A stretch of 64,000 nt of DNA from an uncultured Myxococcales bacterium (GTDB lineage: Bacteria; Myxococcota_A; UBA9042; DTJE01), in NCBI GenBank assembly GCA_903857665.1, contig CAIOFV010000084.1, positions 16,294 through 80,293 of the forward strand. Reading direction: 5' to 3'. Numbering within the stretch: the first letter of the stretch is position 1; each line of letters begins with the position of its first letter. This document shows, piece by piece, positions 25,936 to 49,181 of this stretch. The position numbers and the translations under genes were made by a program. The notes below the pieces were generated by a model. That model saw only the letters and a program-made list of their open reading frames with translations, ran no database searches and was not told where the DNA came from.

Positions 25936-26040
25936 GTGTCCCCTCCCCCCGGGTTGCCCTGGAGCCATGATACAAAAATGGAAGGGACACCGTCCACGTT
26001 TCCGGCTACCTTCGCCCCATCTTCCCCGGAGGGCACCACC

Positions 26041-27395: not shown

Positions 27396-30300
27396 ATGAG
27401 CAGGACGCGTCTCTGCGGGTTCCTTTTCTCGGGGGCGTTGCTGCTGTGGAGCCTCGATGTGCCGGCCGTCGAGGACGTGCCGCCCGGGATCCGCGTGGCT
27501 GGCGTTCTTCGGAACGCGGCCGGAGAACCCGTGACCGGGACCATCCGCGTCACGTTCCGGATCTACGCGAATGCCTCGTGTACTCCATATAACGAAGCGG
27601 TTGCCGACTACGACAACCAGTGCCTTTGGTGGGTGGGGCTCCCCCAGGACATGCAGGTCGTGCAGGGCGCCTTCACGGCGAGCGTGCCTTCGACCCTGGA
27701 TCTGGCGCTGAATCCCACCCTGAACTGGGAGGCGTGGTTCATCAACAACTCCGCTTCGCCCTACCTGGGAATCGAGGCCGCCGGCCGGATCCTCCAGCCG
27801 CGCAATGCCATCACATCCAAGGGGTTCGCGATCCAGTCCAGGCATGCCGAGGAGGCCGACGTGGCCTTCGACCTGGCCTGCGACGGCTGCGTGAACGGAA
27901 CGCAGGGCACGATCGCCGCCGGCGCGATTTCCAACCGCCACGTCAAGACCGACGCGGCGATCGCCGCGACCAAGCTGGCCGGCGTCGCGCTGGCGGGCCA
28001 CGGCCACACCGGCTACCTTCTGGCCAACCCGGCCCTGTCCCAGTCGGCGTCCGTCGATCTGGCCAGGACCGTGACGGCTTCCGATTTCGTGGACCAGGCC
28101 AACCTGAACTACTACGTCGATCCGTACCCGCCCGTCGGGACCACTTCCGCCCATCTCCGAGGGACCGTGCTCCTCGGGCAGAATCCCGTGGCGTCACCGC
28201 CCGCGGATGCCCTGCTGTCCGTCGGAACGACCGGGCAGTTCCAGGTCAGCACCCTCGGCCAGGTCACGATCGCGGGCCTTCCCTACACGTGGCCTCTGAC
28301 CGCCGGTGTTTCCGGGCAGTTCCTGTCCAATGACGGGTTCGGCACCCTTTCCTGGGCCGATCCCGTCCCGGCGGCAGGCACCGGTTTCGTGACCCGCTTC
28401 GCACCCAACGTCCTGGTCACCCGCGAGGTCGTCGGGACCACCGGCCAGATCGCCGTCGCCGACGGGCTGGGCCAGGCTGCCGATCCCAGGATCTCCCTGG
28501 TATCGAATCCCTACTTCCCGGGTACCGGCGCCCTGGGGCTCCCCTCCGGAACCGAGCTCCAGCGTCCCCAGAGCGGCATTTCCACGGGAACCCTGCGGTT
28601 CAACACGGACCGCTCGGCCCTCGAATACTGGGAAGGCTCGAAATGGATGTCGGTCGCCATGGACACCGACATCCTCAACGCGATGCCCGTTGGCACCATC
28701 ATGGCCTTCGCGGGGTCGATTCCGCCATCGACATGGCTCGTGTGCGACGGTTCGATCATGCCTCGCAACATCACGGTCGATGGGGTCTCCCAGCCGGATC
28801 CGTTGTTCGCGGTCATCGGGACCGCCTGGGGCGCTCCGACCTCAGGCACGTTCAACATCCCCGACCTCCGGGGCCAGTTCCTTCGCGGTGTCGATACCCT
28901 GGGTGACGTGGATCTGGACCCCGCCGGGTCTACCGGACGCAATTTCCTGAACCCGGGGGGCAATACCGGGCGCAAGGTCGGTTCCTTCCAGATGTCCGCC
29001 AACCAGGACCACACCCATTCCGCCACCCCGGTGCTGGCACCGTCGCAAGGCTCGCTCCGCGGCATGACGTGCGAGCAGACCGGGTCCGGCGCGGCGCTGG
29101 TTCCGGCGTCGAACCTGTCCGGTTCCGCGGCGCTGGCGGCCTTCTTCGGCAGCGATTCCACGCTTCGCGCCGGCGGGTTCCTGGCCAACGCCGCACAGAT
29201 TCCCGCTCCCACGGGCAACGTCTGGATCCAGAACGATCAGATCAACCTGTCCGGGGAGGCCGTCCCGGTCAATGCGGCCGTGACGTGGATCATCCGGGCG
29301 CGATCCTGTGCGAACGGCGCGTGCAGCGCGGCGTGCCCGGCAGGAATGGGCGACTGCCTCGACCTCAGCGACCCCCAGAACCCGAAGCCAGGCCAGGATG
29401 GCCTGTGCGAAACGGTCCTCACGACCGACGAGAACTGCGGCTCCTGTGGCGTTGCCTGCACGCTGCCGAACGCCTTGACGTCCTGTTCGACGGGCACGTG
29501 CCATCTGGCTTCATGCAACAACTTCCCCGCCACGACCCGGCATTCCTATGGCAATTGCGATGGTGTCGAATCGAACGGCTGCGAAACGTCGCTGGACCAA
29601 CTGAACAACTGCGCCGACTGCCTTGTGCCGTGCACGCGCCTCAATGCAACGCCCAGTTGCTCGAACGGCCTGTGCCACATCGATTCCTGCAACCTTGGCT
29701 GGGGGAACTGCAACAGCAACGACCCCGACGGCTGCGAAACCTCCCTCCGGACGATCACCAATTGCGTGACATGCGGCACGCCCTGTGCGCGGGCCAACGC
29801 CAGCGCCACCTGCGCCGGCCTGCAGTGTCTCACCGACACCTGCATCGCCCCGTGGGGCAACTGCGATGCCGGGCTGCCGGGCGGCGACGCCAACGGCTGC
29901 GAAACGAACCTGAACATCACTCCCGCGCACTGCGGCAGTTGCCCGCTGTCGTGCGTCTCGACCCATGCCACGACCACGGGTTGCAGCGCCGGCAAGTGCG
30001 TCTACTCGTGCTCTGCCGGATGGGCCGATTGCTCGTCGGCCCTCAACGACGGGTGCGAAATGAACATATGGGACTACAACGGCACCAGCGCCCGGACCCA
30101 CTGCGGAACGTGCACGAACGTCTGCAACACGGCCCACAACACGCCGATCTGCCCGTCCGGCTCCTGCGTCCCCGTCTGCGACGCGATGTGGGACAACTGC
30201 GATGGCGATTCGACCAACGGATGCGAACAAACGCTGCAGGACATCTATGACCCGATTACCGGCGCCCTGCAGGTTTCGGCAGTGGCCAATTGCGGCGGAT

Positions 30301-31073
30301 GCCGCACGACGTGCAGTTCGAACCACCAGAATCCCAAGTGCGTCGGAGGCCAGTGCGGGAGGATCGGGGCGTGCATCGGCCTCTATGGCGACTGCAATGG
30401 ATTGATCGCCGACGGCTGCGAAACACCCCTGACGACCCTGACGAGCTGTGGCTCCTGCTACCACCCCTGCTCGGGCCTGCCGAATACGGATCAGCACACG
30501 TGTGCCGACGGGACCTGCCAGCCCGCGACGTGCGTGAACGGCTTCGGCGACTGCAACCATGTAGTCGGCCAGGCCTCGGACGGCTGCGAATACAACTTCA
30601 CCAGCCCGCTGGTCCAGTTGCCGGGCACCTATCTCGGATCCGCCTGCTCGGACGACGACACCACGGACTGGCTCCACGGCGGCGCCTGGTCGTGTCCCGA
30701 CCCGGGCTGGTCCACCGTCTTCCCGGGCGGTTCGTACCAATCGACCTACACGGGAAACAAGACGGCCTACTACTACGCCGAGTGGCGCGAGTGCAACGAC
30801 CAGAACATCCTGGGCATGTACCCCTGCTCCAGGACGATCCATGGGCATGCCACGCTCGTCCCGCCCCCCGGTGCCGACTATGGCCTGTACGTCTATGACA
30901 TGGGTGGCAACTACGTCACCGGAGCCAACAACGGCGCAGGCGTGCAGGCTGATGTCGATTTCTACGCCGGCGGCAGCGTGACCTACGAGATCCGGGTTGT
31001 CTTCTTCAGCGGGACTCCGTGCAACGATCACTGGACCCTGACGGTTCTGCACAAGAACTATGACCATTTGTAG
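27396..31073 (+). CDS. giant secreted protein P1: phage tail-fibre/tail-collar-like N-terminal region + about 8 Cys-rich modules + C-terminal beta-sandwich-like domain (1225 aa)
   Basis: RBS GGAGG-7-ATG. Signal peptide MSRTRLCGFLFSGALLLWSLDVPA. Motif GTLRFNTDRSALEYWEGSKWMSV (phage fibre repeat-like). Collar domain MPVGTIMAFAGSIPPSTWLVCDGS...LFAVIGTAWG...FNIPDLRGQFLRG. Cys modules of type GNCD...DGCET....NC..CG..C. Confidence 0.8.
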   Translation: MSRTRLCGFLFSGALLLWSLDVPAVEDVPPGIRVAGVLRNAAGEPVTGTIRVTFRIYANASCTPYNEAVADYDNQCLWWVGLPQDMQVVQGAFTASVPSTLDLALNPTLNWEAWFINNSASPYLGIEAAGRILQPRNAITSKGFAIQSRHAEEADVAFDLACDGCVNGTQGTIAAGAISNRHVKTDAAIAATKLAGVALAGHGHTGYLLANPALSQSASVDLARTVTASDFVDQANLNYYVDPYPPVGTTSAHLRGTVLLGQNPVASPPADALLSVGTTGQFQVSTLGQVTIAGLPYTWPLTAGVSGQFLSNDGFGTLSWADPVPAAGTGFVTRFAPNVLVTREVVGTTGQIAVADGLGQAADPRISLVSNPYFPGTGALGLPSGTELQRPQSGISTGTLRFNTDRSALEYWEGSKWMSVAMDTDILNAMPVGTIMAFAGSIPPSTWLVCDGSIMPRNITVDGVSQPDPLFAVIGTAWGAPTSGTFNIPDLRGQFLRGVDTLGDVDLDPAGSTGRNFLNPGGNTGRKVGSFQMSANQDHTHSATPVLAPSQGSLRGMTCEQTGSGAALVPASNLSGSAALAAFFGSDSTLRAGGFLANAAQIPAPTGNVWIQNDQINLSGEAVPVNAAVTWIIRARSCANGACSAACPAGMGDCLDLSDPQNPKPGQDGLCETVLTTDENCGSCGVACTLPNALTSCSTGTCHLASCNNFPATTRHSYGNCDGVESNGCETSLDQLNNCADCLVPCTRLNATPSCSNGLCHIDSCNLGWGNCNSNDPDGCETSLRTITNCVTCGTPCARANASATCAGLQCLTDTCIAPWGNCDAGLPGGDANGCETNLNITPAHCGSCPLSCVSTHATTTGCSAGKCVYSCSAGWADCSSALNDGCEMNIWDYNGTSARTHCGTCTNVCNTAHNTPICPSGSCVPVCDAMWDNCDGDSTNGCEQTLQDIYDPITGALQVSAVANCGGCRTTCSSNHQNPKCVGGQCGRIGACIGLYGDCNGLIADGCETPLTTLTSCGSCYHPCSGLPNTDQHTCADGTCQPATCVNGFGDCNHVVGQASDGCEYNFTSPLVQLPGTYLGSACSDDDTTDWLHGGAWSCPDPGWSTVFPGGSYQSTYTGNKTAYYYAEWRECNDQNILGMYPCSRTIHGHATLVPPPGADYGLYVYDMGGNYVTGANNGAGVQADVDFYAGGSVTYEIRVVFFSGTPCNDHWTLTVLHKNYDHL

Positions 31074-31130
31074 TGAGGTCGTCGGCGTTTCCCGGGGGCG
31101 ACGAACCCCTGGAGCCGGAGGTGGGCGGAC

Positions 31131-32753: not shown

Positions 32754-32867
32754 GAGGTTCGGATCCGGCCGCTGCCGGATCATGAATCGGGCGCCCTGGA
32801 AGGTTCCGGTGGGCGCTCACCAGGTAGAAGGTCATTGCGGGCGTCGCCGTGCCGCGAGGAGGACCTC

Positions 32868-35800
32868 ATGAGGCGGGCACGTGAATTCGGATCTCTGCTG
32901 GTGGCGATCGGCATCGGGGCGTATGCCCTGCCTGCCCTAGCCGTCGTCGATCCAGTGCCCCTCACGGTCAACGCGCAGGGAGTCCTGCGCAACGTGGCGG
33001 GGGAAGGGATCACGCAATCCCTGGACGTCACGGTCCGCTTCTACGCTGATGCCGTATGCATCGGGACGGATCCAACCTGCCTTCGGGGCCAGGTAGCGAC
33101 CACCCTGTCCGTCCTGGAAGGCGTGTTCTCGACCGACCTTCCGGTGCTGGAAAGCTGGTTCCTTCATCAGTCCCAGCTCTACATCGAAATCGACGCCGGA
33201 GTCGTCCACCTCGCCAGGACCGCGGTTTCCTCGACGGGCTACGCGTTCCAGGCTCGATTCGCCGAGCAGTCGGACCAGGCGCTCGGGTTGAGTTGCGTCG
33301 GTTGCATCAGCGGAAGCGACATCCTCGACGGCAGCCTTGCCAACGCGCAGGTTGCCTCGGATGCGGCCATCGACATCAGCAAGATTTCCGGCGCGTCGCC
33401 GACGATCCACACGCACACGGGCTTCATCCTGGCCACCCCGCCGGCGGACGCCGCCGCGATCCAGGCCGCCTTCGCCTCCATCACGGGCACCCTCACGGCT
33501 CCGCGCTTCGTCGATCAGGACAACAAGCTGTACTTCTTCGATCCCTCGGATGTCGGGCAATCGGCCGCGCTGTCCCCCGGGGTGGTGATCGGGACCTCGG
33601 CGACGCCGTCCGCGACTGCGTGGCTGTCGGTTGGCGCACTGGGCGAGTTCCAGGTGGACGGAAACGGCAACGCGGCCATCGCCGGAGTCTCCTACGTGTG
33701 GCCGGCCGGTATCGGCAGCGCGGGCAAGGCCCTGTCCCAGGGATCCGGCTCGCTGCTCTGGTCCAGCCCCCCGGTCGATGCCATGGGCGCCGGGCTCCTG
33801 GTGAAGACGGGCGCGCAGACCCAGATCATGCGGAACCTGACCGGTACCACAGGCCAGGTCGTCGTGACCAACGGCAGCGGCTCGGCCGGCGACCCGACCC
33901 TCGCGCTGGCCCCGAACCCCATGCTCCCGGGCACCGGCGGCTCGCGCATCCCCGGCGGGTCCGCGACGAAGCCCAGCCCTGCCACGACCGGAATGATTCG
34001 GTACAACCAGGACCTCGGCGCGCTGGAATACTACGACGGGACTACGTGGAAGAGCGTTGTATCCGCGACGGAAATGCTGGCGTCGATGCCGATCGGCGCC
34101 ATCGTGGCCTACGGGTCCGAAATCCCTCCCGTGGGATGGATGGTCTGCGACGGCCGGATGCTGTCCCGTACGGATTACGCCGATCTCTTCAGGACCATCA
34201 GTACTTACTGGGGCAACCAGGGCAGCACCGTCGACAAGTTCAACATCCCGAACATGCAGGGGCGTTTCCTGCGAGGTGCCGACACCACCATCACCCCGTC
34301 GCTGAAGGTCGATAAGTCTCCGCGAGACAGGCTCTACGATAATGGCAACAACGATCTGGTTGGCTCGTACCAGGTCACGCAAAACCAGAACCACACGCAC
34401 ACGACGCCGATGATCCTCGGCGCCCCGCCCTCGCTGGCCTCGTCCAACTGGCTCTGCCACCCGGATTGGGGCACGATTCGCGAAAGCGATCCTGTCGCCC
34501 GGTTCCTGCGTCCGGACGGAACGGCCGACGAGGTCTCCCTGGCGCCCGGCATCACGCTGGAACTGGAGCGAAGCCTCAAGGGCCTGGCCGACGCCAGGCT
34601 TCTCGATCCCAGCCTCGTGCCCGTATCGCCCGAGTCCCAGGCCGAAGCGGTCATGACCAACCTTTCCGGCGAGGCGCGGCCGGTCAACGGCGCCGTCCAG
34701 TACATCATCAAGGTATCGAACTGCATCGACGCCACGTGTTCGAGCAGTTGCGCCAGCGGGTTTGCCGATTGCGACACCGACCCGAACAACGGTTGTGAAA
34801 CCTACCTGGGAAGCATCGGCAACTGCAACGGATGCACCATCCTCTGCGACTACAACCACGCCTCCGAGGCCTGCCGGCAGACCTCCAGCTTCGTGTTCGG
34901 CTGCCAGTTCCTGGCCTGCGACGCGGGCTATGCCGATTGCAACAACTGGCTGGGCAACGGCACCACCGATCGCGACGGTTGCGAAGTCAACCTGCCGACC
35001 GACGTGCTCCACTGCGGCGGCTGCAACCAGTTCTGCAGCACCCAGAACATCACCCGCGCCTGCGCCGGGGGAAGTTGCGAGTCCGGTTTGTGCGCCACGG
35101 GCTGGGATGACTGCAACGCGAACAAGCGCCTGGACGGTTGCGAAACCGACATCGCCGGGGGCATGCTCAACTGCGGCGGTTGCGGCAAGATTTGCAGCAC
35201 CAACAACATCACGCGGTCCTGTTCGGGTTTCGTCTGCAACGGAACCTGCAACGCGGGCTACATGGACTGCAACTCGAACAAGTTGACCGACGGTTGTGAA
35301 ATCCACACGGACGCTGACGCGACCAACTGCGGCAATTGCGGCGTCGCATGCAGCACCAACAATATCGCGCGTTCCTGCGCAGGCGGCCTTTGCAACGCCG
35401 GTATCTGCAACACCGGCTTCGCGGACTGCAACAACAACAAGTTGACGGACGGCTGCGAAATCAACCTGACCAACGACGTGGTGAATTGCAACGCGTGCGG
35501 CCGGGTGTGCAGCACCCAGAACATTGTCAGGGCCTGCGTCGGCGGCAGTTGCGAAACCCCCGCGTGCAACGCCGGCTTCGCGGACTGCAACGGCAACAAG
35601 CAGTCCGACGGCTGCGAAATCAACCTGAACACCGACGTGCTGAACTGCAACGCGTGCGGCCGGGTCTGCAGCACCCAGAACATCGCCCGTGCCTGCGTCA
35701 GCGGCAGTTGCGAAACCCCCACGTGCAACCTCGGCTTCGCGGACTGCAACGGCAACAAGCAGTCGGACGGCTGCGAAATCAACCTGAACACCGACGTGCT

Positions 35801-38800
35801 GAACTGCAACGCGTGCGGCCGGGTCTGCAGCACCGCGAACGTCAACCGTGCCTGCTCCGGGGGCAGTTGCCAGGCCGGTACCTGCACCGGGGGCTACCTG
35901 GACTGCAACAGCAACATGCAGTCCGACGGCTGCGAAGTGCCGCCGAAGTGCGACACCGGCCTGAAGGGAATCTGCCGCATCGGCGACAATACCTGCTCGG
36001 GCGTTGTGGCCCAGTGCAACATCACGAACTTCCCCGTGGCTGACAACGCCACCGTGGGCAGCGATCCGAACTGCGACGGCTGGGTGCTGGTCCCCCAGAA
36101 CGCCACTACCGGTGGCTTCCAGATGGGCCAGGCCTTCAATACTGAACCGACAGGCAGGGGCGCGGACTACCTTTCCCGCCTGGTCGGGGGCATTCCGACC
36201 GGCGACGCGTCCACGGGTCCGCAGCAGACCGCTTACGAGCGGGCCCACACCGTGACGTTCGCCAACAACGCCATGTGGAAGACGACCGAGGTGACGCAGA
36301 AGGAGTGGAAGGCCCTCTTCCACGCCTACAACCCGTCAACGTTCAAGACCTGCGACGGCGGCAACGGCGACAACTGCCCGGTCGAAAACATCAACTGGTA
36401 CGAGGCAGCGGCCTATGCCAACGCGATGTCGGGCACCAACGCCTGCTACACCTTCTTGAACGTGATCTGCGACGACTCGCCGCCCACCAATGTCGGTTCC
36501 AACGCCATCGGATGCTTCTTCGACGTCAGTGGAAACCCCATCTCTCGCGGCATCGCGTCGGCCACAGTGACGCTGTCGTCCTTGTATGCGACCCCGAAGG
36601 ACTGCCCCGGGTACCGTCTGCCCACCGAGGCGGAGTGGGAATACGCGTACAACGGTCACCTTTCCACGCACAAGGCCTTCGGCACGCCCGCGGCCACCAA
36701 CCTCGGCGTGGCGATTCCCGCCGGCCTGACGGGCGACCTGACGAACCTCCAGGCGGAGACCTGCCTCAATGCCGGGGGCGATCATGCACAGACCATCAAC
36801 GTCAGCCGCGAGGACACCCACCTGGACCTGCTCGGCTGGTACTGCTTCAACGCGGTCAACACCACGCACCCCGTCGGCCAGAAGTGGCCGAACGCCTGGG
36901 GCATCTACGACATGGCGGGCAATGTCGCGGAATGGACGTGGGATAGCTTTGGGGAAAACAACCTGGCCTACCAGGGGCCCCTGTCCATTCCGCTTGGGGC
37001 GATCTGGTTCACCAGCGCCGATCCGGTGCAGTATTCGGCAATCGGCTATGGCAACGCGTCCAAGCGGGGCGGGTCCTACCACGACTGCTCGCTGTACGCT
37101 CGTGGCGCCTTCCGCAGCTCGGCCTATCTGGGCACCCGTGATCCCGGCATCGGCTTCCGCCTGATGAAATCCATCACCTGCGGCGGCCCGGGCTGCTTCC
37201 TCGAGTGTGATCGGACGCACAAGGATTGCGACAACGACACCAAGACCTGCGAAACCGACCTCGAGACCGTGGCGAGCTGCGGCAATTGCTACCAGACCTG
37301 CGCCCAGACCAACACCACCGGCGGGTCGTGCTCGGGGTGGCCCAACTTCACCTGCACCAGTTCCTGCGTGGCCCCCTTCCTGGACTGCGACGGGAACAAG
37401 GGGACGCCCGGCAGCAACGGCTGCGAAGTCAACTCGTCGACCGACCCGGCCAACTGCGGCGCCTGCCTCGCGGCCTGCAGCACCAACAACATCACCCGTA
37501 GCTGCGTCGGCAGCAGTTGCGAAAGCGGCGTCTGCAACGGCGGGTACGCGGACTGCAACTCCAACAAGCGGTCCGACGGGTGCGAAATCAACCTGACCAA
37601 CGACGTGCTGAACTGCAACACGTGCGGTCGCGTCTGCAGCACCTACGGCATCACCCGCAGTTGCGCCGGTGGCAGTTGCGAGGGCGCGGCGTGCCTGACC
37701 GGCTACACGGACTGCAACGGCAACAAGCAGTCGGACGGCTGCGAAACCAACACGGGCGGCGACGTAACGAACTGCGGCGGGTGCGGCAGGGTCTGCAGCA
37801 CCAACAACATCTCGCGCGCCTGTGCCAGCAGCAGTTGCCAGGCCGGCACGTGCCTGACCGGCTTTGCGGACTGCAACACCAACAAGCAGTTGGACGGTTG
37901 CGAAATCAACCTGAACACGGATGCCAACAACTGCAACGCGTGCGGCACGGTTTGCAGCGCCAACAACATGGCCACCCGCACGTGCGGCGCCGGCACGTGC
38001 AACGGCAACTGCACCAACCGTTTCGCGGACTGCAACGGGAACAAGCAGTCGGACGGCTGCGAGATCAACATGGACACCGACGTGCTGAACTGCAACGCGT
38101 GTGGCAGGGTCTGCAGCACCCAGAACATCGCCCGCGCCTGCGTCGGCGGCAGTTGCGAAACGCCCGCGTGCAACGGCGGCTTCGCGGACTGCAACGGGAA
38201 CAAGCAGTCGGACGGCTGCGAAATCAACCTGAACACCGACGTGTTGAACTGCAACGCGTGCGGCCGGGTGTGCAGCACCCAGAACATCGCCCGCTCCTGC
38301 GTCGGCGGCAGTTGCGAAACCCCCGGGTGCAACGCCGGCTTCGCGGACTGCAACACCAACAAGCAGTCGGACGGTTGCGAAATCAACATCCTGAGCGGGG
38401 ACATCGTCAACTGCGGCGCTTGCGGCACCGGGTGCAGCCAGAACCACATCACGGCGACCTGCGCAGCGTACAACTGCGAAAGCGGCTCGTGCGCGTCCGG
38501 CTACCTCGACTGCAACAGCAACAAGCGTGGCGACGGCTGCGAAACCGAGATCTTCAACAACCTCAGCAACTGCGGCGGTTGCGGCGTCGTGTGCAGCACC
38601 AACAACATCAGCCGTGTCTGTTCGAGCGGTAACTGCAACTCCGGTTCCTGCACGTCGCCCTACCTGGACTGCAACAACAACAAGCAGAGCGACGGCTGCG
38701 AGATCAACCCGCTGACGGATGCGAGCAATTGCGGCGGTTGCGGCAAGGTCTGCAGCAACAACCACATCGCGACCCCGACCTGCGACGGAGCCGGCGCCTG

Positions 38801-40082
38801 CAACGGTACCTGCGCCCAGTACTGGGGCGACTGCAACACCAACAAGCTGGCGGACGGCTGCGAGCAGGCCCTGAACACCGATCCCAACAACTGCGGTACG
38901 TGCGGATACGTCTGTCCCGCCCGGGCGCATGCGACCGCCACCTGCTCCGCGACGGGCACGTGCTTCTATACCTGCAACGACCCGTTGAACTGGCTGGACT
39001 GCAACGGCGATCTGAACAGCGCGACGTCCGACGGTTGCGAGTCCAACCTTCCGGACCTGGCTCACAGGTTCTACCGGGATGCGGACGGCGACGGCTATGG
39101 CAACGCGGCGGTCTTCCAGCAGGCGTGCTCTGCCCCGACCGGGTATGTTTCGAACAGCCAGGACTGCAACGACGGCAATGCGGCGATCAAGCCCGGAGCG
39201 ACCGAAGTCTGCGACGGGGTGGACAACGACTGCAACGGCTCTACGGATGAAGCACCGTTGTTGACGATGTGCCCCCTCACGGCCAACGTGGCGACGACCG
39301 TTTGCAACGGCACCTCGTTGTGCGGCATCGCGACATGCAATGCCGGCTACTACAACACCGATGTGGGCACCGCCGATCACGGCTACGCGAACGGCTGCGA
39401 GTGCCTGGCAGACACCTATGACCGGAACGGCCAGGCCACGACCTGTGCGGCCGCGGTCACCATGGGCACGCTGACGGACAATTCGACGCTGCAGGCCCTG
39501 GGTACCATCGGCGCCAACACCATCCCCAGCGGTGATACCGACTGGTACAGCGTGACCGTGACGAACAATGTCCAGAGCGGCACCTGGGCCGCCCCGAGCA
39601 ACGAGGCCTGGGGCGTCAAGTTCTGGCTGGACCAGGCCGCCAGCGATTCGTGCATCGCCTTCCAGGTGTACTCGGCCTGCGGCACCTTGTGGACCTGCGG
39701 CACCAACTGTACGGGGGGTGTAACCGACCTGAACCAGTTCCAGGATTCGTACAGCCTCGAGCGCCCGTGCGTCAACACCAACGCGAAGGGCGCGACCAAC
39801 GCCGGCCAGTGGAACTGCTGCGGCGGCGGCGGCACGGCTTGCGCGTTGCCCAACACCGCTGCGGTGGGCCTGGACGCGAATTGCGGCTACGCGGACGGAG
39901 GGGCTTTCCCGGGCGGCGCCCACGCGATCCATTACTGCAACACGACCAACGCCAGCGTCACCATGCCGGCCTCGAAGACCTACTACATCAACGTCTACCG
40001 CAAGACCACCGGTGGTTGCGTGGTGACCGCCCCGACCTGCGCCGGTGGCACGTATTCCCTGAAGGCCCAGAACATCTACTGA
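32868..40082 (+). CDS. giant secreted protein P3 (2404 aa): tail-fibre/collar-like N-region + 9 Cys modules + FGE-sulfatase-like domain + about 20 Cys modules + MopE metal-binding motif + PPC-like C-terminal domain
   Basis: RBS GAGGAGG-7-ATG. Signal peptide. GMIRYNQDLGALEYYDGTTWKSV. Collar domain MPIGAIVAYGSEIPPVGWMVCDGRML...FNIPNMQGRFLRG. FGE-like WYEAAAYANAM...GYRLPTEAEWEYA...GNVAEWT...RGGSYHDCSLYARGAFRSS...GFRLM. MopE-like RDADGDGYGN...CDGVDNDCNGSTDE. D.DWY motif near the C-terminus. Confidence 0.8.
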   Translation: MRRAREFGSLLVAIGIGAYALPALAVVDPVPLTVNAQGVLRNVAGEGITQSLDVTVRFYADAVCIGTDPTCLRGQVATTLSVLEGVFSTDLPVLESWFLHQSQLYIEIDAGVVHLARTAVSSTGYAFQARFAEQSDQALGLSCVGCISGSDILDGSLANAQVASDAAIDISKISGASPTIHTHTGFILATPPADAAAIQAAFASITGTLTAPRFVDQDNKLYFFDPSDVGQSAALSPGVVIGTSATPSATAWLSVGALGEFQVDGNGNAAIAGVSYVWPAGIGSAGKALSQGSGSLLWSSPPVDAMGAGLLVKTGAQTQIMRNLTGTTGQVVVTNGSGSAGDPTLALAPNPMLPGTGGSRIPGGSATKPSPATTGMIRYNQDLGALEYYDGTTWKSVVSATEMLASMPIGAIVAYGSEIPPVGWMVCDGRMLSRTDYADLFRTISTYWGNQGSTVDKFNIPNMQGRFLRGADTTITPSLKVDKSPRDRLYDNGNNDLVGSYQVTQNQNHTHTTPMILGAPPSLASSNWLCHPDWGTIRESDPVARFLRPDGTADEVSLAPGITLELERSLKGLADARLLDPSLVPVSPESQAEAVMTNLSGEARPVNGAVQYIIKVSNCIDATCSSSCASGFADCDTDPNNGCETYLGSIGNCNGCTILCDYNHASEACRQTSSFVFGCQFLACDAGYADCNNWLGNGTTDRDGCEVNLPTDVLHCGGCNQFCSTQNITRACAGGSCESGLCATGWDDCNANKRLDGCETDIAGGMLNCGGCGKICSTNNITRSCSGFVCNGTCNAGYMDCNSNKLTDGCEIHTDADATNCGNCGVACSTNNIARSCAGGLCNAGICNTGFADCNNNKLTDGCEINLTNDVVNCNACGRVCSTQNIVRACVGGSCETPACNAGFADCNGNKQSDGCEINLNTDVLNCNACGRVCSTQNIARACVSGSCETPTCNLGFADCNGNKQSDGCEINLNTDVLNCNACGRVCSTANVNRACSGGSCQAGTCTGGYLDCNSNMQSDGCEVPPKCDTGLKGICRIGDNTCSGVVAQCNITNFPVADNATVGSDPNCDGWVLVPQNATTGGFQMGQAFNTEPTGRGADYLSRLVGGIPTGDASTGPQQTAYERAHTVTFANNAMWKTTEVTQKEWKALFHAYNPSTFKTCDGGNGDNCPVENINWYEAAAYANAMSGTNACYTFLNVICDDSPPTNVGSNAIGCFFDVSGNPISRGIASATVTLSSLYATPKDCPGYRLPTEAEWEYAYNGHLSTHKAFGTPAATNLGVAIPAGLTGDLTNLQAETCLNAGGDHAQTINVSREDTHLDLLGWYCFNAVNTTHPVGQKWPNAWGIYDMAGNVAEWTWDSFGENNLAYQGPLSIPLGAIWFTSADPVQYSAIGYGNASKRGGSYHDCSLYARGAFRSSAYLGTRDPGIGFRLMKSITCGGPGCFLECDRTHKDCDNDTKTCETDLETVASCGNCYQTCAQTNTTGGSCSGWPNFTCTSSCVAPFLDCDGNKGTPGSNGCEVNSSTDPANCGACLAACSTNNITRSCVGSSCESGVCNGGYADCNSNKRSDGCEINLTNDVLNCNTCGRVCSTYGITRSCAGGSCEGAACLTGYTDCNGNKQSDGCETNTGGDVTNCGGCGRVCSTNNISRACASSSCQAGTCLTGFADCNTNKQLDGCEINLNTDANNCNACGTVCSANNMATRTCGAGTCNGNCTNRFADCNGNKQSDGCEINMDTDVLNCNACGRVCSTQNIARACVGGSCETPACNGGFADCNGNKQSDGCEINLNTDVLNCNACGRVCSTQNIARSCVGGSCETPGCNAGFADCNTNKQSDGCEINILSGDIVNCGACGTGCSQNHITATCAAYNCESGSCASGYLDCNSNKRGDGCETEIFNNLSNCGGCGVVCSTNNISRVCSSGNCNSGSCTSPYLDCNNNKQSDGCEINPLTDASNCGGCGKVCSNNHIATPTCDGAGACNGTCAQYWGDCNTNKLADGCEQALNTDPNNCGTCGYVCPARAHATATCSATGTCFYTCNDPLNWLDCNGDLNSATSDGCESNLPDLAHRFYRDADGDGYGNAAVFQQACSAPTGYVSNSQDCNDGNAAIKPGATEVCDGVDNDCNGSTDEAPLLTMCPLTANVATTVCNGTSLCGIATCNAGYYNTDVGTADHGYANGCECLADTYDRNGQATTCAAAVTMGTLTDNSTLQALGTIGANTIPSGDTDWYSVTVTNNVQSGTWAAPSNEAWGVKFWLDQAASDSCIAFQVYSACGTLWTCGTNCTGGVTDLNQFQDSYSLERPCVNTNAKGATNAGQWNCCGGGGTACALPNTAAVGLDANCGYADGGAFPGGAHAIHYCNTTNASVTMPASKTYYINVYRKTTGGCVVTAPTCAGGTYSLKAQNIY
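34730..35940. repeat. block A of in-frame about 135-bp (45-aa, 8-Cys) tandem modules in P3; several copies near-identical at nucleotide level
   Basis: Module CxxG[FY]ADCNxNKxxDGCE(I/V)NLxxDxxNCxxCGxxCSxxNIxRxC..GxC. Copies around 35570-35860 are >90% identical to copies in block B (38020-38400). Confidence 0.6.
37360..38900. repeat. block B of the same 135-bp tandem modules in P3 (about 11 copies)
   Basis: Same module as block A. Consecutive near-identical units, e.g. 38040-38175, 38175-38310, 38310-38445. Confidence 0.6.
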
Positions 40083-40347
40083 CCGGCCCGCGATTCCCGC
40101 TGACCCCCTGCCACCACGCGCCACCGCGGCACAGCCCTGTCGCACCCCCCGCCCGGCGCCCGGCAACCGACACGCGGGTTTCCCCGCCCCCCGCCCGGCG
40201 TCGCCCCACTGCGCACTCATCCCAGGCTTGATTCCACTGGTCACGAATACCCGGATCGGTTACGCTTCTGCCGTCAGGGGAAGCGTGATGCCCGTTGGGG
40301 CCGTCCGAATCAATGCCCCCGACGCTCGTGAACAAGGGAGGCTGGCC

Positions 40348-43209: not shown

Positions 43210-43424
43210 CCTCTCCCGCCCCCGACTGCGACATAACCGCCCTACGAACCGGCCGCCCCCCTGCACTTCGGCAGGTTTTCCGTACCTCCACCCGCGGATT
43301 TTGGCTATAATCAATCGTCTTGCGTGCATCAGGGCGGACCGGGATCACGAAGAGAGTCGCGTGCGATACCCGAATCGGCCCTCTGTCCCGGTCTTCGGCA
43401 CTTCGATCCTTCGAGGAGGTTTCC

Positions 43425-46400
43425 ATGGCCCGGTGCATCAGGTTGCGTGATTCGTTGCGACGGATTGCTCTTCTGGCCGTGGTGGGTGCGCTGGCCTCCG
43501 GGTGCGGCGGCAGCAACAAACCGAAGGACGTCCTCTCGGACACGCAGGGAGAGGATGAGGATTCCCTGGTGGCGCCTGACATCCTGGATGTCCCGGACCT
43601 GGTGCCGGACGTGCCCGTCCGGGATCCGGGAACGGAAGTCGATGCCGCGGATGTCCCTGAAGACGAAATCGGACCCGTGGAGGTGTTCACGGAGGACGTC
43701 CACACGGACGCCGGTTGCGAGATCGATTCCGACTGTCCGGACCCGGGCCCCTGCCTGGTGGGCCGGTGCGTGGACGGGATCTGTTCCACCGAGGCTCGGG
43801 ACTGCCAGGATGGCGATCCCTGCACCAAGGATTCCTGCGATCAGACGACCGGGTGCGCCCACGACGCCATTTCGGGCTGCACCACCTGCGGTGTGAGTAC
43901 CGACTGCATCGGCCACGAACCGAACCAGTGCGTCCGCGGATCCTGCGGATTGCTGGACGCCGGGGATGCGTCCCCGCCCTGCCCTTCTGCCGGGTCCTGC
44001 CCGGACGGCCTCGAATGCAGCCCGGATTCCAGCCAGTGCGTGGCCCACGCGTGCCGCTGGATCACGCGCGTCTGCGATGACCAGGACCCCTGCACGACGG
44101 ACGGCTGCGACCCGGATCGCGGCTGCACCCACGTCCAGGCTGTCGATGCGCCCCCGGCGTGCCACACGTGCACGAAGGATCTGGATTGCGCGAACCTGGT
44201 GGCCGATCCCTGCAGCGTCATCACCTGCTACCTGACGTCCGGCCGATGCCGCGTGGATCCGAAGTCCTGCGACGACGGCAACCAGTGCACCGTGGATTCC
44301 TGCGATCCCGCGACGGGTTGCCTCCATGTCGAAAAGGTGTGCAACGACGGGGACTCCTGCACGACCGATTCCTGCAACCCCGCCACCGGCACATGCGTCG
44401 CCATCGACCTGTCGTGCGATGACGGCGATGCCTGCACGACCGACTTCTGCGTGCCGGGCGTGGGCTGCCAGCACAACCCGTTGTCGTGCGATGACCGGAA
44501 CCCCTGCACCGAGGATCGCTGCACGGGCGGCCAGTGCACCTGGGAAAACAAGACGTGCGACGATGGGAATGCGTGCACGGCGGACACGTGCGTCCGGACG
44601 GACGGCAGTTGCAAGTCGGTGCAGCGGACGTGCGACGACGGCAATCCCTGCACGCTCGATTCCTGCGACAGGACCGCCGGTTGCATCCACACCGACATCG
44701 CCTGCTCGGACAACGACGCCTGCACTCTGGATCGATGCGATCCGGCCCTCGGTTGCGTCCACCAGCGCCTGCCGTCCTGCCCGTGCACCACCAACGCCCA
44801 GTGCAACGACGGGAACGCCTGCACGACGGAGGTCTGCGATACGGGCGTCTGCAAGTACGTGGCCACGCAGTGCTCCGATGGCGACGCCTGCACCGCCGAC
44901 TGGTGCGACGCGGCCACCGGAACGTGCCAGAAAGTCGTCCGGGATTGCGAGGACAACGACCCCTGCACGATCGACCTGTGTGCGCCCGGGGTGGGATGCG
45001 TTCACTCCGCGCAGGCCTGCGACGATCAGAACCCGTGCACCACGGATCTGTGCGACCGCGTGACGGGGGCGTGCGCGCATGTCGTGAAGGACTGCGACGA
45101 CGGCAACCCTGTCACCGTGGACCGTTGCAATCCCGACACGGGGAACTGCACCAACGTCCCGACAACCTGCTCGGACGGCGACTCGTGCACGACCGACACC
45201 TTCGATGCAATCAGCGGAACCTGTCGCCATACCATGATCAACTGTGACTACAACAACGCGTGCACGACCGATTCCTGCATTCCCCTGAAGGGATGCGTGC
45301 ACCTGCCGTCCCCGAAGCCCGGATGCTCCACCGCCTGTCTGATCGACAAGGATTGCTCGGACGGGAACCCCTGCACGGTGGATCAATGCGATCAGGCGAC
45401 CAAGTTGTGCGGATACACCGTGAAGGATTGTTCGGACGGGAACCCCTGCACCCTGGACGAATGCAACTCGACGACCGGAGCCTGCAAGAACACGCTGAAC
45501 ACCTGCAACGACCTCAATCCGTGCACGATCGACTCGTGCGACGCCGTGACGGGGGCGTGCGTCCACACCGACAAGAACTGCGATGACGGCAACCCCTGCA
45601 CGACGGACATCTGCGACCAGACGACCGGCAAGTGCCTTTCCACCCCCGTCATCGTGGACGATGGCGACGCCTGTACGGTGGATCGTTGCGACCCGGTTTC
45701 CGGGGTCATCCTGCACCTGCAGGCATCCTGCGACGACGGGGACCTCTGCACGATCGACAAGTGCGATCCTGCGACCGGGGCCTGCATCAACACGGTCAAG
45801 ACCTGCGAGGACCTGGACGCCTGCACCGCGGACTCCTGCGACCCCTCGACGGGTGCGTGCCTGAACGTGCGCAAGTCCTGCGATGACGGGGACCCGTGCA
45901 CCCAGGATTCCTGTCACCCGATGACGGGGCAGTGCCTGCACACGAAGCGTTCCTGCGATGACGGAAATACCTGCACGATGGATTCGTGCGATTCCGCTTC
46001 CGGCGCCTGTGTGCACCAGGATCGATCCTGCGACGATGGCGAGCCCTGCTCCGTGGACTCGTGCGTCCGAAACGTGGGATGCGTCCATACGCCCCTGTCG
46101 TGCGACGACGGGGATCCCTGTACCGTCGATGCCTGCGAAGGCACGGGCTGCAGTCATCGGCCCGTCGCGAACTGCAAGGCCTGCACCGTCGCCACGGATT
46201 GCCAGGTGACGGATCCGTGCGCCGTGGGCGTGTGCAACCAGGCGACGCACCAGTGTTCCTGGACGTACGCCGACTGCAACGACCGGGACCCCTGCACCGC
46301 CGATTCGTGCATCGCCGGGACGGGCACCTGCAAGCACACGCGGAAGGACTGCAACGACGGCCTGGCATGCACCTACGACTACTGCGACTCGACCTCTGGT

Positions 46401-48209
46401 GGGTGCGTGTACGTCGAGTCGTGTCCCGACGCCGATCCCTGCACGATCGATTCCTGCGACCTTGCCACCGGCCAGTGCCTGCACGCGAAGGTCAACTGCA
46501 AGGACAGCGATCCCTGCACCGAGGATACGTGCGACCCCCTGGTCGGGTCCTGCGTCCACCGCCCCAACTGCGACGATCTGGACCCGTGCACCACGGACCG
46601 GTGCGATCCGGTCCTGGAATGCGTGCACACGCCGGCGACCTGTGACGACGGCGACCCCTGCACGGTCGATACCTGCGTTGCCGGCCAGGGATGCGTCCAC
46701 ACGCCGAAGGACTGCAACGACGGCCTCTTCTGCACGGTGGATTCGTGCAATCCCGTGACGGGCGCCTGCTTGAACGTGGCGAAGAACTGCGACGATGGGG
46801 ATGGCTGCACGACCGACCGGTGCGACCAGACCACGGGCACATGCCTGCACGATCCGAAGGACTGCAACGACGGCCTGGACTGCACGGCGGATTCGTGCCG
46901 GAGCCCCGCCGGGACCTGTGTCCATGCGGATTCCTGCGACGTCGGCAACAAGTGCTTCCCCGCCTACTGCGAAGCCTCGACGGGCCAATGCAGGGTGATG
47001 CCCGTCAACTGCGACGACGACAACCGGTGCACCGCGGATTCGTGCGATCTGGCCGTCGGCTGCAAGCACGCGCCGGTGACCTGCGACGACGGGAACAAGT
47101 GCACGGAGGACACGTGCTCCCCGTCCTCCGGTTGCGAATTCACCACGAAGAACTGTGACGACGGCGACCCGTGCACGATCGACAGTTGCAACGTCGCGCT
47201 GGGATGCATCAACTCCCGGCTGTCGTGCACCCAGGGCGACCGCTGTACCGTGGATTCGTACTGCGAGGCCGATCCGGCAGACGCAACGTTGGCGAAGTGC
47301 GTTTACGTCGAACGGGATTGCCCGTGGTCGGACCCGTGCATCCCCGGGTACTGCGACCGGACGACCGGCCAGTGCAACACGACGCCACTGGACTGCAACG
47401 ACCACAACGTCTGCACGACGGACACCTGCGATCGACGCAGCGGCACCTGCACCCTGACCCCGGCTCTCAACTGCAACGACAGCAACCCCTGTACGCTCGA
47501 CGCCTGCAGCGCGGGCACCTCGGGTGCTGCCCAGTGCAACCATGTGGATGCCTGCGACGACCGGAACGCCTGCACGCTTGACAGTTGCGCTACCGGCCAG
47601 GGATGCGTCCACGTGGTGGACCACTCGAAGGCGAACTGCCTCTGCCATGCGAACTCGGACTGCGACGACTCGGATCCGTGCACGATCGACGTGTGCAACG
47701 GGTCCAACGAGTGCACGCACACCGCGAAGACCTGCACCCCGATCGACGATTGCCACGTGTCCACCTGCGACGGAACCACGGGGGCCTGCGTGTCGACTTT
47801 CGCCAAGGAATGCTGCGCGGTGGACGCCGACTGCGACGACGGCGCGCCCCACACGCAGGACGTCTGCCAGTCAGGCCATTGCCGGCACCTGTGGGCCTGC
47901 GACGACAACAACCCATGCACGCAGGACTTCCAGAATCCTCTGACCGGGGCCTGCAAGAACGTGACGGACACGTGCGCTGACGGCAACTCCTGCACGGACG
48001 ATTCCTGCAATGCGAACCAGGGTTGCGTGCACACTCAACAGGCAACCTGCTACCAGGTGACCTGCACGACCGACAGCGATTGCGCAGACAACCGTACCTG
48101 CACGATCGACATCTGCGTGGCCACTGGCGGCATTCTGAACACCTGCGTGCATCCGGCAATGTGGTGCCCGCCTGGCAAGGCCTGCGTGGAAGGATTCGGC
48201 TGCATGTAG
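43425..48209 (+). CDS. giant lipoprotein of about 100 Myxococcus-type cysteine-rich repeats (TIGR02232/DUF4215-like; 1594 aa)
   Basis: RBS GGAGG. Lipobox VVGALASGCGG. Acidic linker, then continuous C(D/N)DG(D/N)(P/A)CT.D.CD...G.C motif to the C-terminus. Confidence 0.8.
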   Translation: MARCIRLRDSLRRIALLAVVGALASGCGGSNKPKDVLSDTQGEDEDSLVAPDILDVPDLVPDVPVRDPGTEVDAADVPEDEIGPVEVFTEDVHTDAGCEIDSDCPDPGPCLVGRCVDGICSTEARDCQDGDPCTKDSCDQTTGCAHDAISGCTTCGVSTDCIGHEPNQCVRGSCGLLDAGDASPPCPSAGSCPDGLECSPDSSQCVAHACRWITRVCDDQDPCTTDGCDPDRGCTHVQAVDAPPACHTCTKDLDCANLVADPCSVITCYLTSGRCRVDPKSCDDGNQCTVDSCDPATGCLHVEKVCNDGDSCTTDSCNPATGTCVAIDLSCDDGDACTTDFCVPGVGCQHNPLSCDDRNPCTEDRCTGGQCTWENKTCDDGNACTADTCVRTDGSCKSVQRTCDDGNPCTLDSCDRTAGCIHTDIACSDNDACTLDRCDPALGCVHQRLPSCPCTTNAQCNDGNACTTEVCDTGVCKYVATQCSDGDACTADWCDAATGTCQKVVRDCEDNDPCTIDLCAPGVGCVHSAQACDDQNPCTTDLCDRVTGACAHVVKDCDDGNPVTVDRCNPDTGNCTNVPTTCSDGDSCTTDTFDAISGTCRHTMINCDYNNACTTDSCIPLKGCVHLPSPKPGCSTACLIDKDCSDGNPCTVDQCDQATKLCGYTVKDCSDGNPCTLDECNSTTGACKNTLNTCNDLNPCTIDSCDAVTGACVHTDKNCDDGNPCTTDICDQTTGKCLSTPVIVDDGDACTVDRCDPVSGVILHLQASCDDGDLCTIDKCDPATGACINTVKTCEDLDACTADSCDPSTGACLNVRKSCDDGDPCTQDSCHPMTGQCLHTKRSCDDGNTCTMDSCDSASGACVHQDRSCDDGEPCSVDSCVRNVGCVHTPLSCDDGDPCTVDACEGTGCSHRPVANCKACTVATDCQVTDPCAVGVCNQATHQCSWTYADCNDRDPCTADSCIAGTGTCKHTRKDCNDGLACTYDYCDSTSGGCVYVESCPDADPCTIDSCDLATGQCLHAKVNCKDSDPCTEDTCDPLVGSCVHRPNCDDLDPCTTDRCDPVLECVHTPATCDDGDPCTVDTCVAGQGCVHTPKDCNDGLFCTVDSCNPVTGACLNVAKNCDDGDGCTTDRCDQTTGTCLHDPKDCNDGLDCTADSCRSPAGTCVHADSCDVGNKCFPAYCEASTGQCRVMPVNCDDDNRCTADSCDLAVGCKHAPVTCDDGNKCTEDTCSPSSGCEFTTKNCDDGDPCTIDSCNVALGCINSRLSCTQGDRCTVDSYCEADPADATLAKCVYVERDCPWSDPCIPGYCDRTTGQCNTTPLDCNDHNVCTTDTCDRRSGTCTLTPALNCNDSNPCTLDACSAGTSGAAQCNHVDACDDRNACTLDSCATGQGCVHVVDHSKANCLCHANSDCDDSDPCTIDVCNGSNECTHTAKTCTPIDDCHVSTCDGTTGACVSTFAKECCAVDADCDDGAPHTQDVCQSGHCRHLWACDDNNPCTQDFQNPLTGACKNVTDTCADGNSCTDDSCNANQGCVHTQQATCYQVTCTTDSDCADNRTCTIDICVATGGILNTCVHPAMWCPPGKACVEGFGCM

Positions 48210-48449: not shown

Positions 48450-48509
48450 GGAGAAGCGGGGGCAGGAGAAGCGGGCCCTGGAGAAGCGGGCCCTGGAGAA
48501 GCGGCGGCG
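48450..48509. repeat. 4 x 15-bp tandem repeat GGAGAAGCGGG(G/C)(G/C)C(A/T) directly 3' of the minus-strand pgsA-like gene
   Basis: Copies at 48450, 48465, 48480, 48495. Stop codon of the minus-strand gene at 48514-48516. Confidence 0.55.
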
Positions 48510-48513
48510 GCGC

Positions 48514-49137
48514 CTACTTCCTGCCGGCGATCCGGTTGATGGCGAGGTAGTAGTCGATCAGGGAGATCAGGGCCCCCAGCGCGACGAGGATCGACAGGAC
48601 CTGGGCGACGGGCGCCACCAGGTCGCGCAGGCCTTCGACATAGTGCGCGACGACCAGGAACCCGACGATGAGGTTCGCGGCGATGGCCTGGCTGAGGGCC
48701 TTGATCTTGCCGGACGGGCGGGCCTGGACGACGTATCCCTCCTTGGCCGCAATGACCCGCAGCGTGCTGACCACCGCCTCCCGATAGTAGACGACCAGGA
48801 GCACCCAGAAGGGGATCAGGCCCACCCACATCAGGCAGAGGAATGCCCCGACGTGCGACAGGGTGTCGGCGAGGGGGTCCACCAGTTTCCCAAGGTCGGT
48901 CACGGTGCCGTGGTGACGGGCGATCGCCCCATCCACCAGGTCCGACACTTCCTGCAGGAACATCAGGGCCCAGGCGGCGATCAGGAATTCGGGACGGATA
49001 TCGACGATCAGCGTTTCGATCGGCGCCCCGTAGCCGCTGCCCCGCAGTCCCAGCCAGAACAGCAGAACGAAGATGGGGCTGGCCACCAGCCTCGAAAAGG
49101 TGATCCACAGGGGCAGGTTGGTCGGAGCGATAACCAC
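48514..49137 (-). CDS. CDP-alcohol phosphatidyltransferase family protein (PgsA-like)
   Basis: DLVDGAIARHHGTVTDLGKLVDPLADTL = D-G-x2-A-R-x8-G-x3-D-x3-D signature. Multiple TM helices. N-terminus APTNLPLWITFSRL resembles the PgsA start. GTG start at 49137 inferred; there is no in-frame ATG nearby. Confidence 0.6.
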   Translation of the reverse strand: MVIAPTNLPLWITFSRLVASPIFVLLFWLGLRGSGYGAPIETLIVDIRPEFLIAAWALMFLQEVSDLVDGAIARHHGTVTDLGKLVDPLADTLSHVGAFLCLMWVGLIPFWVLLVVYYREAVVSTLRVIAAKEGYVVQARPSGKIKALSQAIAANLIVGFLVVAHYVEGLRDLVAPVAQVLSILVALGALISLIDYYLAINRIAGRK

Positions 49138-49181
49138 GGCCGTATCGTAGGCGAAACCCCTCCCGGGCGCGAGAGGAAAAA

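Follow-up and report, generated by a model that had tools for sequence, protein, structure and literature searches.

To our knowledge, the mosaic adhesive trimers (MAT) of Bdellovibrio are the one case to date in which the reuse of phage receptor-binding fibres as bacterial surface adhesins has been elucidated by experiment. Characterised phage fibres with a collar of the T4 gp12 type are homotrimers. In trimeric fibres, gp12 included, HxH motifs form octahedral six-histidine metal sites on the threefold axis (PMC6116203). The Bdellovibrio MAT of one predator is listed with an FGE tip (PMC10769870). In Myxococcus, the Sec-exported surface receptor TraA contains a tandem cysteine-rich array, proposed to be a rigid stalk that presents a polymorphic lectin-like domain (PMC3325183). 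Three tandem genes that recall each of these systems in part are found in a 64,000-nt stretch of DNA from an uncultured Myxococcales bacterium (contig CAIOFV010000084.1, positions 16,294 to 80,293 of the forward strand), called the window below. They encode P1 (27396..31073, 1225 amino acids (aa)), P2 (31131..32753, 540 aa) and P3 (32868..40082, 2404 aa), and lie on the + strand, as do all features located within them.

P1, P2 and P3 are probably surface-recognition fibres, of a design that is unusual but built on a principle that is not new. The reading preferred here, with a probability of about 60%, is based on sequence: the three proteins would be a vertically inherited chromosomal family, exported by the Sec pathway and likely forming parallel trimers like T4 gp12, with cysteine-module arms on P1 and P3 that end in variable binding domains.

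The shared N-terminal module and its relatives

Over their N-terminal 540–640 residues, P1, P2 and P3 can be aligned throughout, with 36–40% identity and ∼130 invariant columns; between N-domain and collar the indels are few and short. The module starts with a type I signal peptide, followed by a beta-rich domain of ∼110 residues, a shaft of ∼270 residues, a fibre repeat unit, the collar, an HxH motif, an insertion and a closing strand. Signal peptides, judged by eye without a predictor, are present at the N-termini of P1, P2 and P3 and of P0011, a 564-aa protein from a distant relative. The beta-sandwich of P1 (27471..27845, residues ∼26–150) ends in FA.Q..HAE and is common to P2, P3, P0011 and short secreted proteins of the ‘N-domain + collar’ type. 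The invariant columns include the motif G..R(F/Y)N......EY..G..W..V, which is the end of a phage-fibre repeat unit, and the post-collar HxH, which begins at residue 539 in P1 and at residue 509 in both P2 and P3. A second invariant HxH is located in the shaft and begins at residues 202, 182 and 181 of P1, P2 and P3, respectively; in P1 it reads HGH (27999..28007, residues 202–204), and it is found in P0011 as well. Given that such motifs are six-histidine axis sites in trimeric fibres (PMC6116203), two invariant HxH per chain constitute good indirect evidence for a parallel trimer.

The collar itself is recognized by Pfam (PF07484) at residues 433–496 of P1, 403–468 of P2 and 410–468 of P3, with E values of 2e-14 to 2e-15 and scores of 53–57 bits that exceed the gathering cut-off of 24 bits. 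In PHROGs, the collar regions match tail-collar-fibre families, such as ‘tail collar fiber protein’ phrog_523, down to E 1e-18. A profile of the three modules matches the C-terminal fragment of T4 gp12 (1ocy, 1pdi) with an E value of 2e-11 over profile positions 387–599, a match that spans collar and HxH, then the inserted head, and then E(T/A)RP.N....YIIK as the terminal strand. Collar and head occupy 28692..29306 in P1 (HxH at residues 539–541, then the head insertion and a closing strand ...WIIRA to residue 637) and 34095..34721 in P3 (HxH at residues 509–511, then the head insertion and a closing strand ...YIIKVS to residue 618). The closing strand follows the pattern GE.(R/V)PVN..V..II(K/R) in the three modules. 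The head insertion is ∼15 aa long in P2, versus 75–110 aa in P1 and P3, and P2, which has no arm, is the minimal paralogue. On these alignments, P1, P2 and P3 are paralogues with a phage tail-fibre/collar architecture.

A preliminary description of this DNA, made from the letters and a list of open reading frames (ORFs), had proposed five ORFs on the + strand, with a paralogous N-terminal module in the first three, a fibre-repeat motif, tail-collar domain and post-collar H-x-H in each of them, and a similarity to phage fibre or collar folds. All five ORFs are found, and the full-length alignment, the invariant columns, the Pfam scores and the gp12 match bear out the rest. The shaft HxH, and in P3 an FGE-like domain and a MopE motif, had been missed.

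A profile search over 1.84 billion representative proteins gives 59,865 matches. Only P3, P1, a P2 fragment and P0011 match over the full length; in all other listed matches the best stretch is the fibre-repeat and collar part, at profile positions ∼230–600. In IMG/VR viral contigs, 145 of 145 relatives match P2 from residue 295 onward only, and the N-terminal 290 residues of the module have no match there. A hidden Markov model of the N-domain matches P0153, P0124, P0139, P0147, P0145, P0134 and P0141 with E values of 7e-16 to 7e-8, and the beta-sandwich recurs in signal-peptide proteins of 320–530 aa from diverse bacteria, in most of which it is joined directly to the collar and head. By this recurrence in short secreted proteins, P1–P3 appear to belong, as elaborate forms, to a large class of collar proteins that bacteria secrete, with a phage-type shaft inserted and arms added. 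Word-index searches for homologues (with P2, with the three-module alignment and with the C-terminal domain of P1) return almost nothing besides near-identical copies, too little for a deep alignment for structure prediction. A scan of species-representative genome contigs gives five distant collar matches.

The three genes travel together. A 99%-identical metagenome contig has the order RNase PH, P1, P2, P3 and start of P4, and independent gene calls on it confirm the lengths of P1 and P3 and the P2 gene. Orthologues of ∼90% identity are carried by two JGI contigs, of which L008 holds P1, and L009 the end of P2 and the whole of P3. In the distant relative (∼40% identity), three Collar genes encoding 1189, 564 and 620 aa stand in a row. 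The second encodes P0011, which is 42% identical to P2, 38% to P3 and 34% to P1 and ends directly after a short head, as P2 does; by these values it is the P2 orthologue. A partial 1189-aa protein on contig L006 has a collar and cysteine modules, and its C-terminal domain can be aligned with that of P1; the third paralogue has 620 aa in the relative versus 2404 aa here. In the relative, genes for a 123-aa protein, a Metallophos_2 protein, a 235-aa protein and a CDP-OH_P_transf protein stand ahead of the trio; in the window, a block encoding an RRM protein, a Metallophos_2 protein, a 241-aa protein and a CDP-OH-P-transferase (48560..50920, − strand) flanks the trio too. As the relative orientation of trio and block is opposite in the window and on the P0011 contig, the cluster has been inverted relative to the four-gene block in one lineage. 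Recurrence at 99, ∼90 and ∼40% identity beside the same neighbouring genes indicates that the trio is old, chromosomal and syntenic, while its arms vary.

Tandem small collar genes exist in other phyla: contig L001, from a WPS-2 metagenome-assembled genome (CALEYW010000069.1), has five collar ORFs of 130–335 aa on one strand (9905..12634 and 14270..14659), the first four with 3-nt gaps.

Conservation of exactly three paralogues in the same order, in two lineages ∼40% identical (1225/540/2404 versus 1189/564/620 aa), is what would be seen if P1, P2 and P3 assembled 1:1:1 into one asymmetric heterotrimeric fibre, with no arm on one chain and arms of 590 and 1790 aa on the others. Modules that align with few short indels and keep both HxH invariant would suit such a partnership, as would tight linkage of genes with ribosome-binding sites, between which terminator-like sites are not found, and the existence of tandem collar gene sets such as that on L001. 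It is at odds with the homotrimeric state generally known for characterised phage fibres with this collar. Moreover, head insertions that differ by ∼90 residues between P2 and P1/P3 would break the threefold symmetry at the head, and an interchain identity of 36–40% is low for a shared intertwined shaft. A heterotrimer is therefore decidedly unlikely, and its fuller version, one phage-derived surface fibre whose arms, as disulfide-knotted rods, bear differing recognition domains for recognising prey or kin cells, is slightly more so.

Cysteine-module arms and their tips

Both gp12 and P2 terminate with the closing strand, whereas the chains of P1 and P3 run on for 590 and 1790 aa beyond it. 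In P1, this extension consists of an array of ∼7 cysteine modules (29307..30587, residues 638–1064) and a C-terminal domain of ∼160 aa (30588..31070, residues 1065–1225), for which no Pfam or PDB relative is found. In P3, a first array of seven modules (34722..35942) is followed by an FGE-sulfatase-like domain of C-type-lectin fold (36192..37166, residues 1109–1433; Pfam E 5e-27), a second array of 11 modules (37179..39047), a MopE motif (Pfam) and a hypervariable C-terminal domain (39468..40079, residues 2201–2404). Thus, the FGE-like domain splits the modules 7 + 11, and P1 and P3 each terminate in a non-repeat domain of 160–200 aa. Each module has the consensus C-x2-C-x3-C-x8/9-C-x4-C-x4-C-x6-C-x8-C, followed by E-x-N-L-x-x-D-x-x-N. 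Arrays of 8-Cys modules in P1 and P3 had been noticed in the preliminary description, and they stand; the module length of 45 aa given there, which answers to the core, does not, as the 43-aa core and 10-aa linker make a period of 53 aa. This equals 159 bp in DNA, and Tandem Repeats Finder reports 159-bp repeats at 35348..35936 within the first P3 array and at 37475..38387 within the second.

Relatives of these parts are scarce. Pfam, at E values up to 10, has no match for the N-domain, the shaft, the modules or the C-terminal domains. The sole NCBIfam match of the module is a weak one, to ‘MXAN_6577-like cysteine-rich protein’, and the end domain of P1 has essentially no homologues beyond its own orthologues. 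Among the top 149 representatives of the profile search, only P1 and P3 contain >3% Cys, and the post-collar extensions of the nine other representatives that have one consist of additional collar domains only. A long cysteine-module arm beyond the collar, with a fast-evolving tip, is a design that none of the other sampled top relatives with a collar domain shows. The first half of the module (C-x2-C-x3-C...C...C; e.g. 35487..35645) gives a non-significant profile match (E ∼0.3) to short scorpion toxins of equal Cys spacing; scorpion toxins and a cyclotide, both from the PDB search, are rejected as relatives of the module at this E value.

The FGE-like domain of P3 has its best PDB match in Treponema denticola TvpA (2y3c, E 4e-19), followed by PorK/GldK, PvdO and FGE. 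Opposite the catalytic Cys pair of FGE, the aligned P3 stretch, read by eye, has a single Cys; on this account, a binding role seems more likely than a catalytic one. TvpA is a lectin-fold variable protein of a diversity-generating retroelement (DGR). The P3 domain was considered as a DGR target and rejected: no reverse transcriptase is found in the window ORFs and no template repeat is found, since the FGE-like region, compared by blastn with all other parts of the window, gives only chance matches of ≤30 nt.

Divergence between orthologues rises towards the C-terminus, with identities of 92–97% in the fibre and 42–85% in the C-terminal tip. In P3 compared with its L009 orthologue, identity is 95% in the N-domain, 86–92% in the shaft, 91–95% in the collar and head and 85–90% in the cysteine arrays, then falls to 80% in the FGE-like domain, 68% in the MopE region and 42% in the last 200 aa. 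In P1 compared with its L008 orthologue, it is 95–100% in the fibre, 90% in the array and 85% in the C-terminal domain, the least conserved part of this protein. The ratio of nonsynonymous to synonymous substitution rates (dN/dS) is 0.12–0.33 in the fibre part, 0.3–0.4 in the arrays, 0.52 in the FGE-like domain and 0.63–0.80 in the tips, rising from the N- to the C-terminal end from 0.17 to 0.80 in P3 and from 0.12 to 0.63 in P1. This gradient is the pattern expected if the distal domains hold specificity, and is not proof of positive selection. The C-terminal variation among relatives foreseen in the preliminary description is thus found both in the 42% identity of the P3 tip, against 92–95% for its fibre, and in the unequal lengths of the third paralogue.

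The same arms could be imagined in structural proteins of an extracellular matrix or envelope layer, where cysteine arrays and collars would make up a cross-linked scaffold rather than ligand-specific adhesins. Cys-rich repeat proteins are typical of extracellular matrices (PMC3325183), other genes of the window, those of P4 and P5 among them, also encode Cys-rich or repeat lipoproteins, and orthologues show 95–99% conservation of the head insertion, the part that binds the receptor in gp12. However, recognition domains rather than scaffolds typically show so steep a distal rise in divergence and dN/dS, P3 has a lectin-fold FGE-like domain, and the relative's third paralogue lacks the whole arm, which marks the arms as dispensable modules. 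A purely structural role is therefore unlikely.

If P1–P3 are recognition fibres, as preferred here, their assembly may be pictured as follows. The signal peptide would be cleaved, and the N-terminal beta-sandwich would form the proximal end and dock to a component of the cell envelope, a position suggested by analogy with the invariant N-domain of MAT fibres. The shaft, ∼270 residues of phage-fibre repeat segments, would come next, probably clamped by a six-histidine metal site built from its invariant HxH. It would lead into the gp12-type collar with the second HxH, which would give the trimer another six-histidine site, the head insertion and the closing collar strand, where the P2 chain would stop. 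The chains of P1 and P3 would leave the collar as rods of 53-aa modules with four disulfides each, seven in P1 and 7 + 11 in P3. In gp12 (1ocy) the chain end returns to the collar, so that the arms would leave the collar sideways. The arrays would act as disulfide-stiffened stalks, as proposed for TraA, and would carry domains of binding type: in P3 the FGE/C-type-lectin-like one, and in P1 as well as P3 a C-terminal one that is specific to the lineage. An assembled fibre would present up to three long arms, whose tips and FGE-like domain would bind ligands, the tips giving ligand specificity and being the fastest-evolving part. Prey, kin, a polysaccharide or a surface are conceivable targets.

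Several points weigh against this picture. Trimerisation, surface display, arm geometry and a function in adhesion or recognition are inferred. The AlphaFold2 monomer model of full-length P2 is poor, with a predicted local distance difference test score (pLDDT) of 42.5, and was left out of the fold search; the fold of shaft and collar is thus argued from homology. The model of the P2 N-domain is somewhat better (pLDDT 62.6, predicted TM-score 0.61), and its fold search against PDB and BFVD gives generic Ig-like or beta-sandwich matches only, with TM ≤0.5. The cysteine module and the end domains of P1 and P3 have no relatives in Pfam or PDB, so the binding role of the tips is argued from position and evolutionary rate. 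Finally, dN/dS is <1 in every region, and dS is raised in the P3 tip (0.71), for which allele replacement or noise in the alignment, and not selection, may be responsible.

Chromosomal setting and neighbouring genes

Fibres of real phages are clear homologues of the shared module in its C-terminal half. This could suggest a decaying prophage or tailocin remnant, or fibres for an extracellular contractile injection system (eCIS), a tailocin or a particle resembling the type VI secretion system (T6SS) encoded elsewhere in the genome. However, all three proteins bear cleavable Sec signal peptides, whereas the parts of phages and tail particles assemble in the cytoplasm, and no phage or tail-particle families are found in the 27 kb upstream or the 16 kb downstream. 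The ORFs are intact, with native G+C content at third codon positions (GC3) and a dN/dS of 0.1–0.3 in the fibre part; one chromosomal locus is kept across deep divergence; and the N-terminal 290 residues are not found in viral contigs. Phage or tail-particle parts are thus highly improbable.

Pfam and PHROGs scans of the flanking ORFs in the 64-kb window detect no capsid, terminase, sheath, tube, baseplate or integrase families, and flanking ORFs without a Pfam match have no PHROGs match either. The upstream flank encodes BcsB, a DEAD-box helicase, acetyl-CoA hydrolase, phosphofructokinase, a class A penicillin-binding protein, GcvT, GcvP, an amine oxidase, an amidohydrolase, a radical SAM/SPASM protein and RNase PH. 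On the downstream side are genes for a CDP-alcohol phosphatidyltransferase, a Metallophos_2 protein, an RRM protein, a PTA/acetate-kinase-like protein, a Ser/Thr kinase and an Ldh_2 dehydrogenase. Because the flanks are housekeeping genes, the proteins bear signal peptides, the cluster is kept beside the same neighbours at ∼40% identity and the N-terminal 290 aa have no match in viral contigs, the locus is chromosomal and not a prophage remnant. This agrees with the preliminary description, which had reported no capsid, terminase or integrase genes and favoured a chromosomal locus.

The cluster had also been described as one of five genes, of which the trio is kept in the distant relative and the other two are not. 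P4 (40348..43209, + strand, 953 aa) is a lipoprotein with an Lcl_C/DUF1566 domain (Pfam) that adjoins the trio, and P5 (43425..48209, + strand, 1594 aa) is a lipoprotein with 40 Dicty_CTDC Cys repeats (Pfam); their lipoprotein-type signal peptides read ...LFAAC and ...LASGC, respectively. In the relative, the genes downstream of the trio encode proteins of 1677 and 501 aa without Pfam match, unlike P4 and P5. A hairpin with a T-run, resembling a terminator, follows P4 at 43260..43275. The window contains a second Lcl_C/DUF1566 protein (6509..7447, − strand) and a second Dicty_CTDC protein (53521..55953, + strand, eight repeats detected), and both families are common in this genome, so that P4 and P5 may lie beside the trio by chance. 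For these reasons, they are treated here as neighbours and not as parts of the system.

The P1–P5 ORFs are coding-like, with a GC3 of 0.84–0.88 as expected for genes of this genome, in a window of 63–76% G+C. This high G+C, the lipoproteins of Dicty_CTDC, Lcl_C and MopE type, the MXAN_6577-like match and the Ser/Thr kinase would fit an organism resembling myxobacteria. The short gaps between P1 and P2 (57 bp) and between P2 and P3 (114 bp), said earlier to bear ribosome-binding sites, indeed do: GGAGG sites lie 8–13 nt 5′ of the starts of P1, P2 and P3, and likewise of P4. No terminator-like site is found between P1, P2 and P3. Within the P2–P3 gap, a perfect 8-bp GC-rich hairpin without T-run (GATCCGGC-CGCT-GCCGGATC, 32762..32781) begins 9 nt past the stop codon of P2; in the transcript between the two genes it might serve as an attenuator or a stabilising element. 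A scan for sigma-70 promoters gives zero sites, and an Rfam search upstream of P1 finds no regulatory RNA. A role of P1–P5 in anti-phage defence was considered and rejected, as PADLOC returns no match for any of them.

Three further features of the flanks deserve mention. A radical SAM/SPASM protein is encoded beside an amidohydrolase and a flavin amine oxidase (23873..25990, 22031..23869 and 20882..22027, all − strand) upstream of RNase PH; this group could be a peptide-maturation or cofactor cluster, and no link to the fibre genes is seen. P5 and the CDP-alcohol phosphatidyltransferase gene converge, and 3.4 copies of a 15-bp tandem repeat (GGAGAAGCGGGCCCA) lie between their ends (48450..48500). 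One ORF (51033..53465, + strand) joins a PTA_PTB phosphate acetyltransferase-like domain to the C-terminal half of an acetate-kinase domain, an apparent fusion.

Comparison with known systems

Should P1–P3 indeed be surface fibres, they would be a defined, testable candidate for the means by which an uncultured bacterium recognises cells or surfaces, and could offer a first functional handle on the very large group of secreted bacterial collar proteins (59,865 representative matches), often named ‘microcystin-dependent protein’. A heterotrimer, if it exists, would mean that the homotrimeric scaffold of gp12 has been remodelled by bacteria into an adhesin that is heteromeric and multi-specific.

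Close to the trio are the short secreted proteins of ‘N-domain + collar’ or MdpB type (such as P0124, P0139, P0147 and P0153). They have a signal peptide, the same beta-sandwich (E 1e-10 to 1e-16) and a collar and head ending in ETRP.NA..YIIKY, and P0011 carries the source name ‘microcystin-dependent protein’. Unlike P1–P3, they lack the ∼270-aa shaft between N-domain and collar, and they have no post-collar arm. Since these proteins are functionally uncharacterised, their name conveys no mechanism.

For the arms, TraA and TvpA are the points of reference. TraA has a C-terminal MYXO-CTERM anchor and a variable PA14 domain at its N-terminus, whereas P1–P3 have no MYXO-CTERM and the variable domain of P1 and P3 is C-terminal: the C-termini ...HKNYDHL, ...FVIKR and ...KAQNIY are devoid of a Cys-containing tag or hydrophobic tail, and NCBIfam gives no such match. 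The repeats of TraA are of the TIGR04201/Dicty_CTDC type, the 53-aa module of P1 and P3 is only weakly MXAN_6577-like, and TraA has no phage-fibre part. TvpA (2y3c) is the best solved relative of the FGE-like domain of P3, and the fold is a variable ligand-binding scaffold in the TvpA family; in P3, unlike in these DGR proteins, the domain is internal and not C-terminal.

The MAT of Bdellovibrio (PMC10769870), the nearest precedent in function, resemble the trio in concept, with a signal peptide, a conserved beta-rich N-domain of ∼110–130 aa, a long trimeric fibre of phage-like type and variable or swappable C-terminal tips. They are built of beta-helix prisms with a capping loop V-G-G/N-x-x-x-P-x-x-x-L, a motif that a regular-expression search does not find in P1–P3. 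The S74 chaperone-protease (SDxxxK) present in 13 of the 21 MAT, where it is optional, has no counterpart in P1–P3, either as a Pfam Peptidase_S74 match or as SDxxxK. The MAT paper makes no mention of a collar domain, and the P1–P3 profile does not match the crystallised MAT fragments in the PDB. The likeness to adhesive trimers of predatory bacteria, raised in the preliminary description, thus holds for the concept and not at the level of motif, protease or sequence, and these comparisons give no support for placing P1–P3 in the MAT family.

Of the solved fibres, T4 gp12 (1ocy/1pdi; PF07484) is the model for the second half of the module. They share collar, HxH, inserted head and an E-x-R-P-x-N...YIIK closing strand, and in both, fibre repeats lie upstream of the collar. 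The differences lie at the two ends and in the setting. P1–P3 have Sec signal peptides and a bacterial beta-sandwich where gp12 has its baseplate-binding N-terminus, P1 and P3 extend 590 and 1790 aa past the final strand of gp12, and the genes are chromosomal, with phage genes nearby not found. Compared with MAT, the trio suggests an independent case of fibre reuse on a different phage scaffold, the collar and head of gp12. Secreted bacterial proteins derived from phage fibres are already known; what is new here is the architectural variant.

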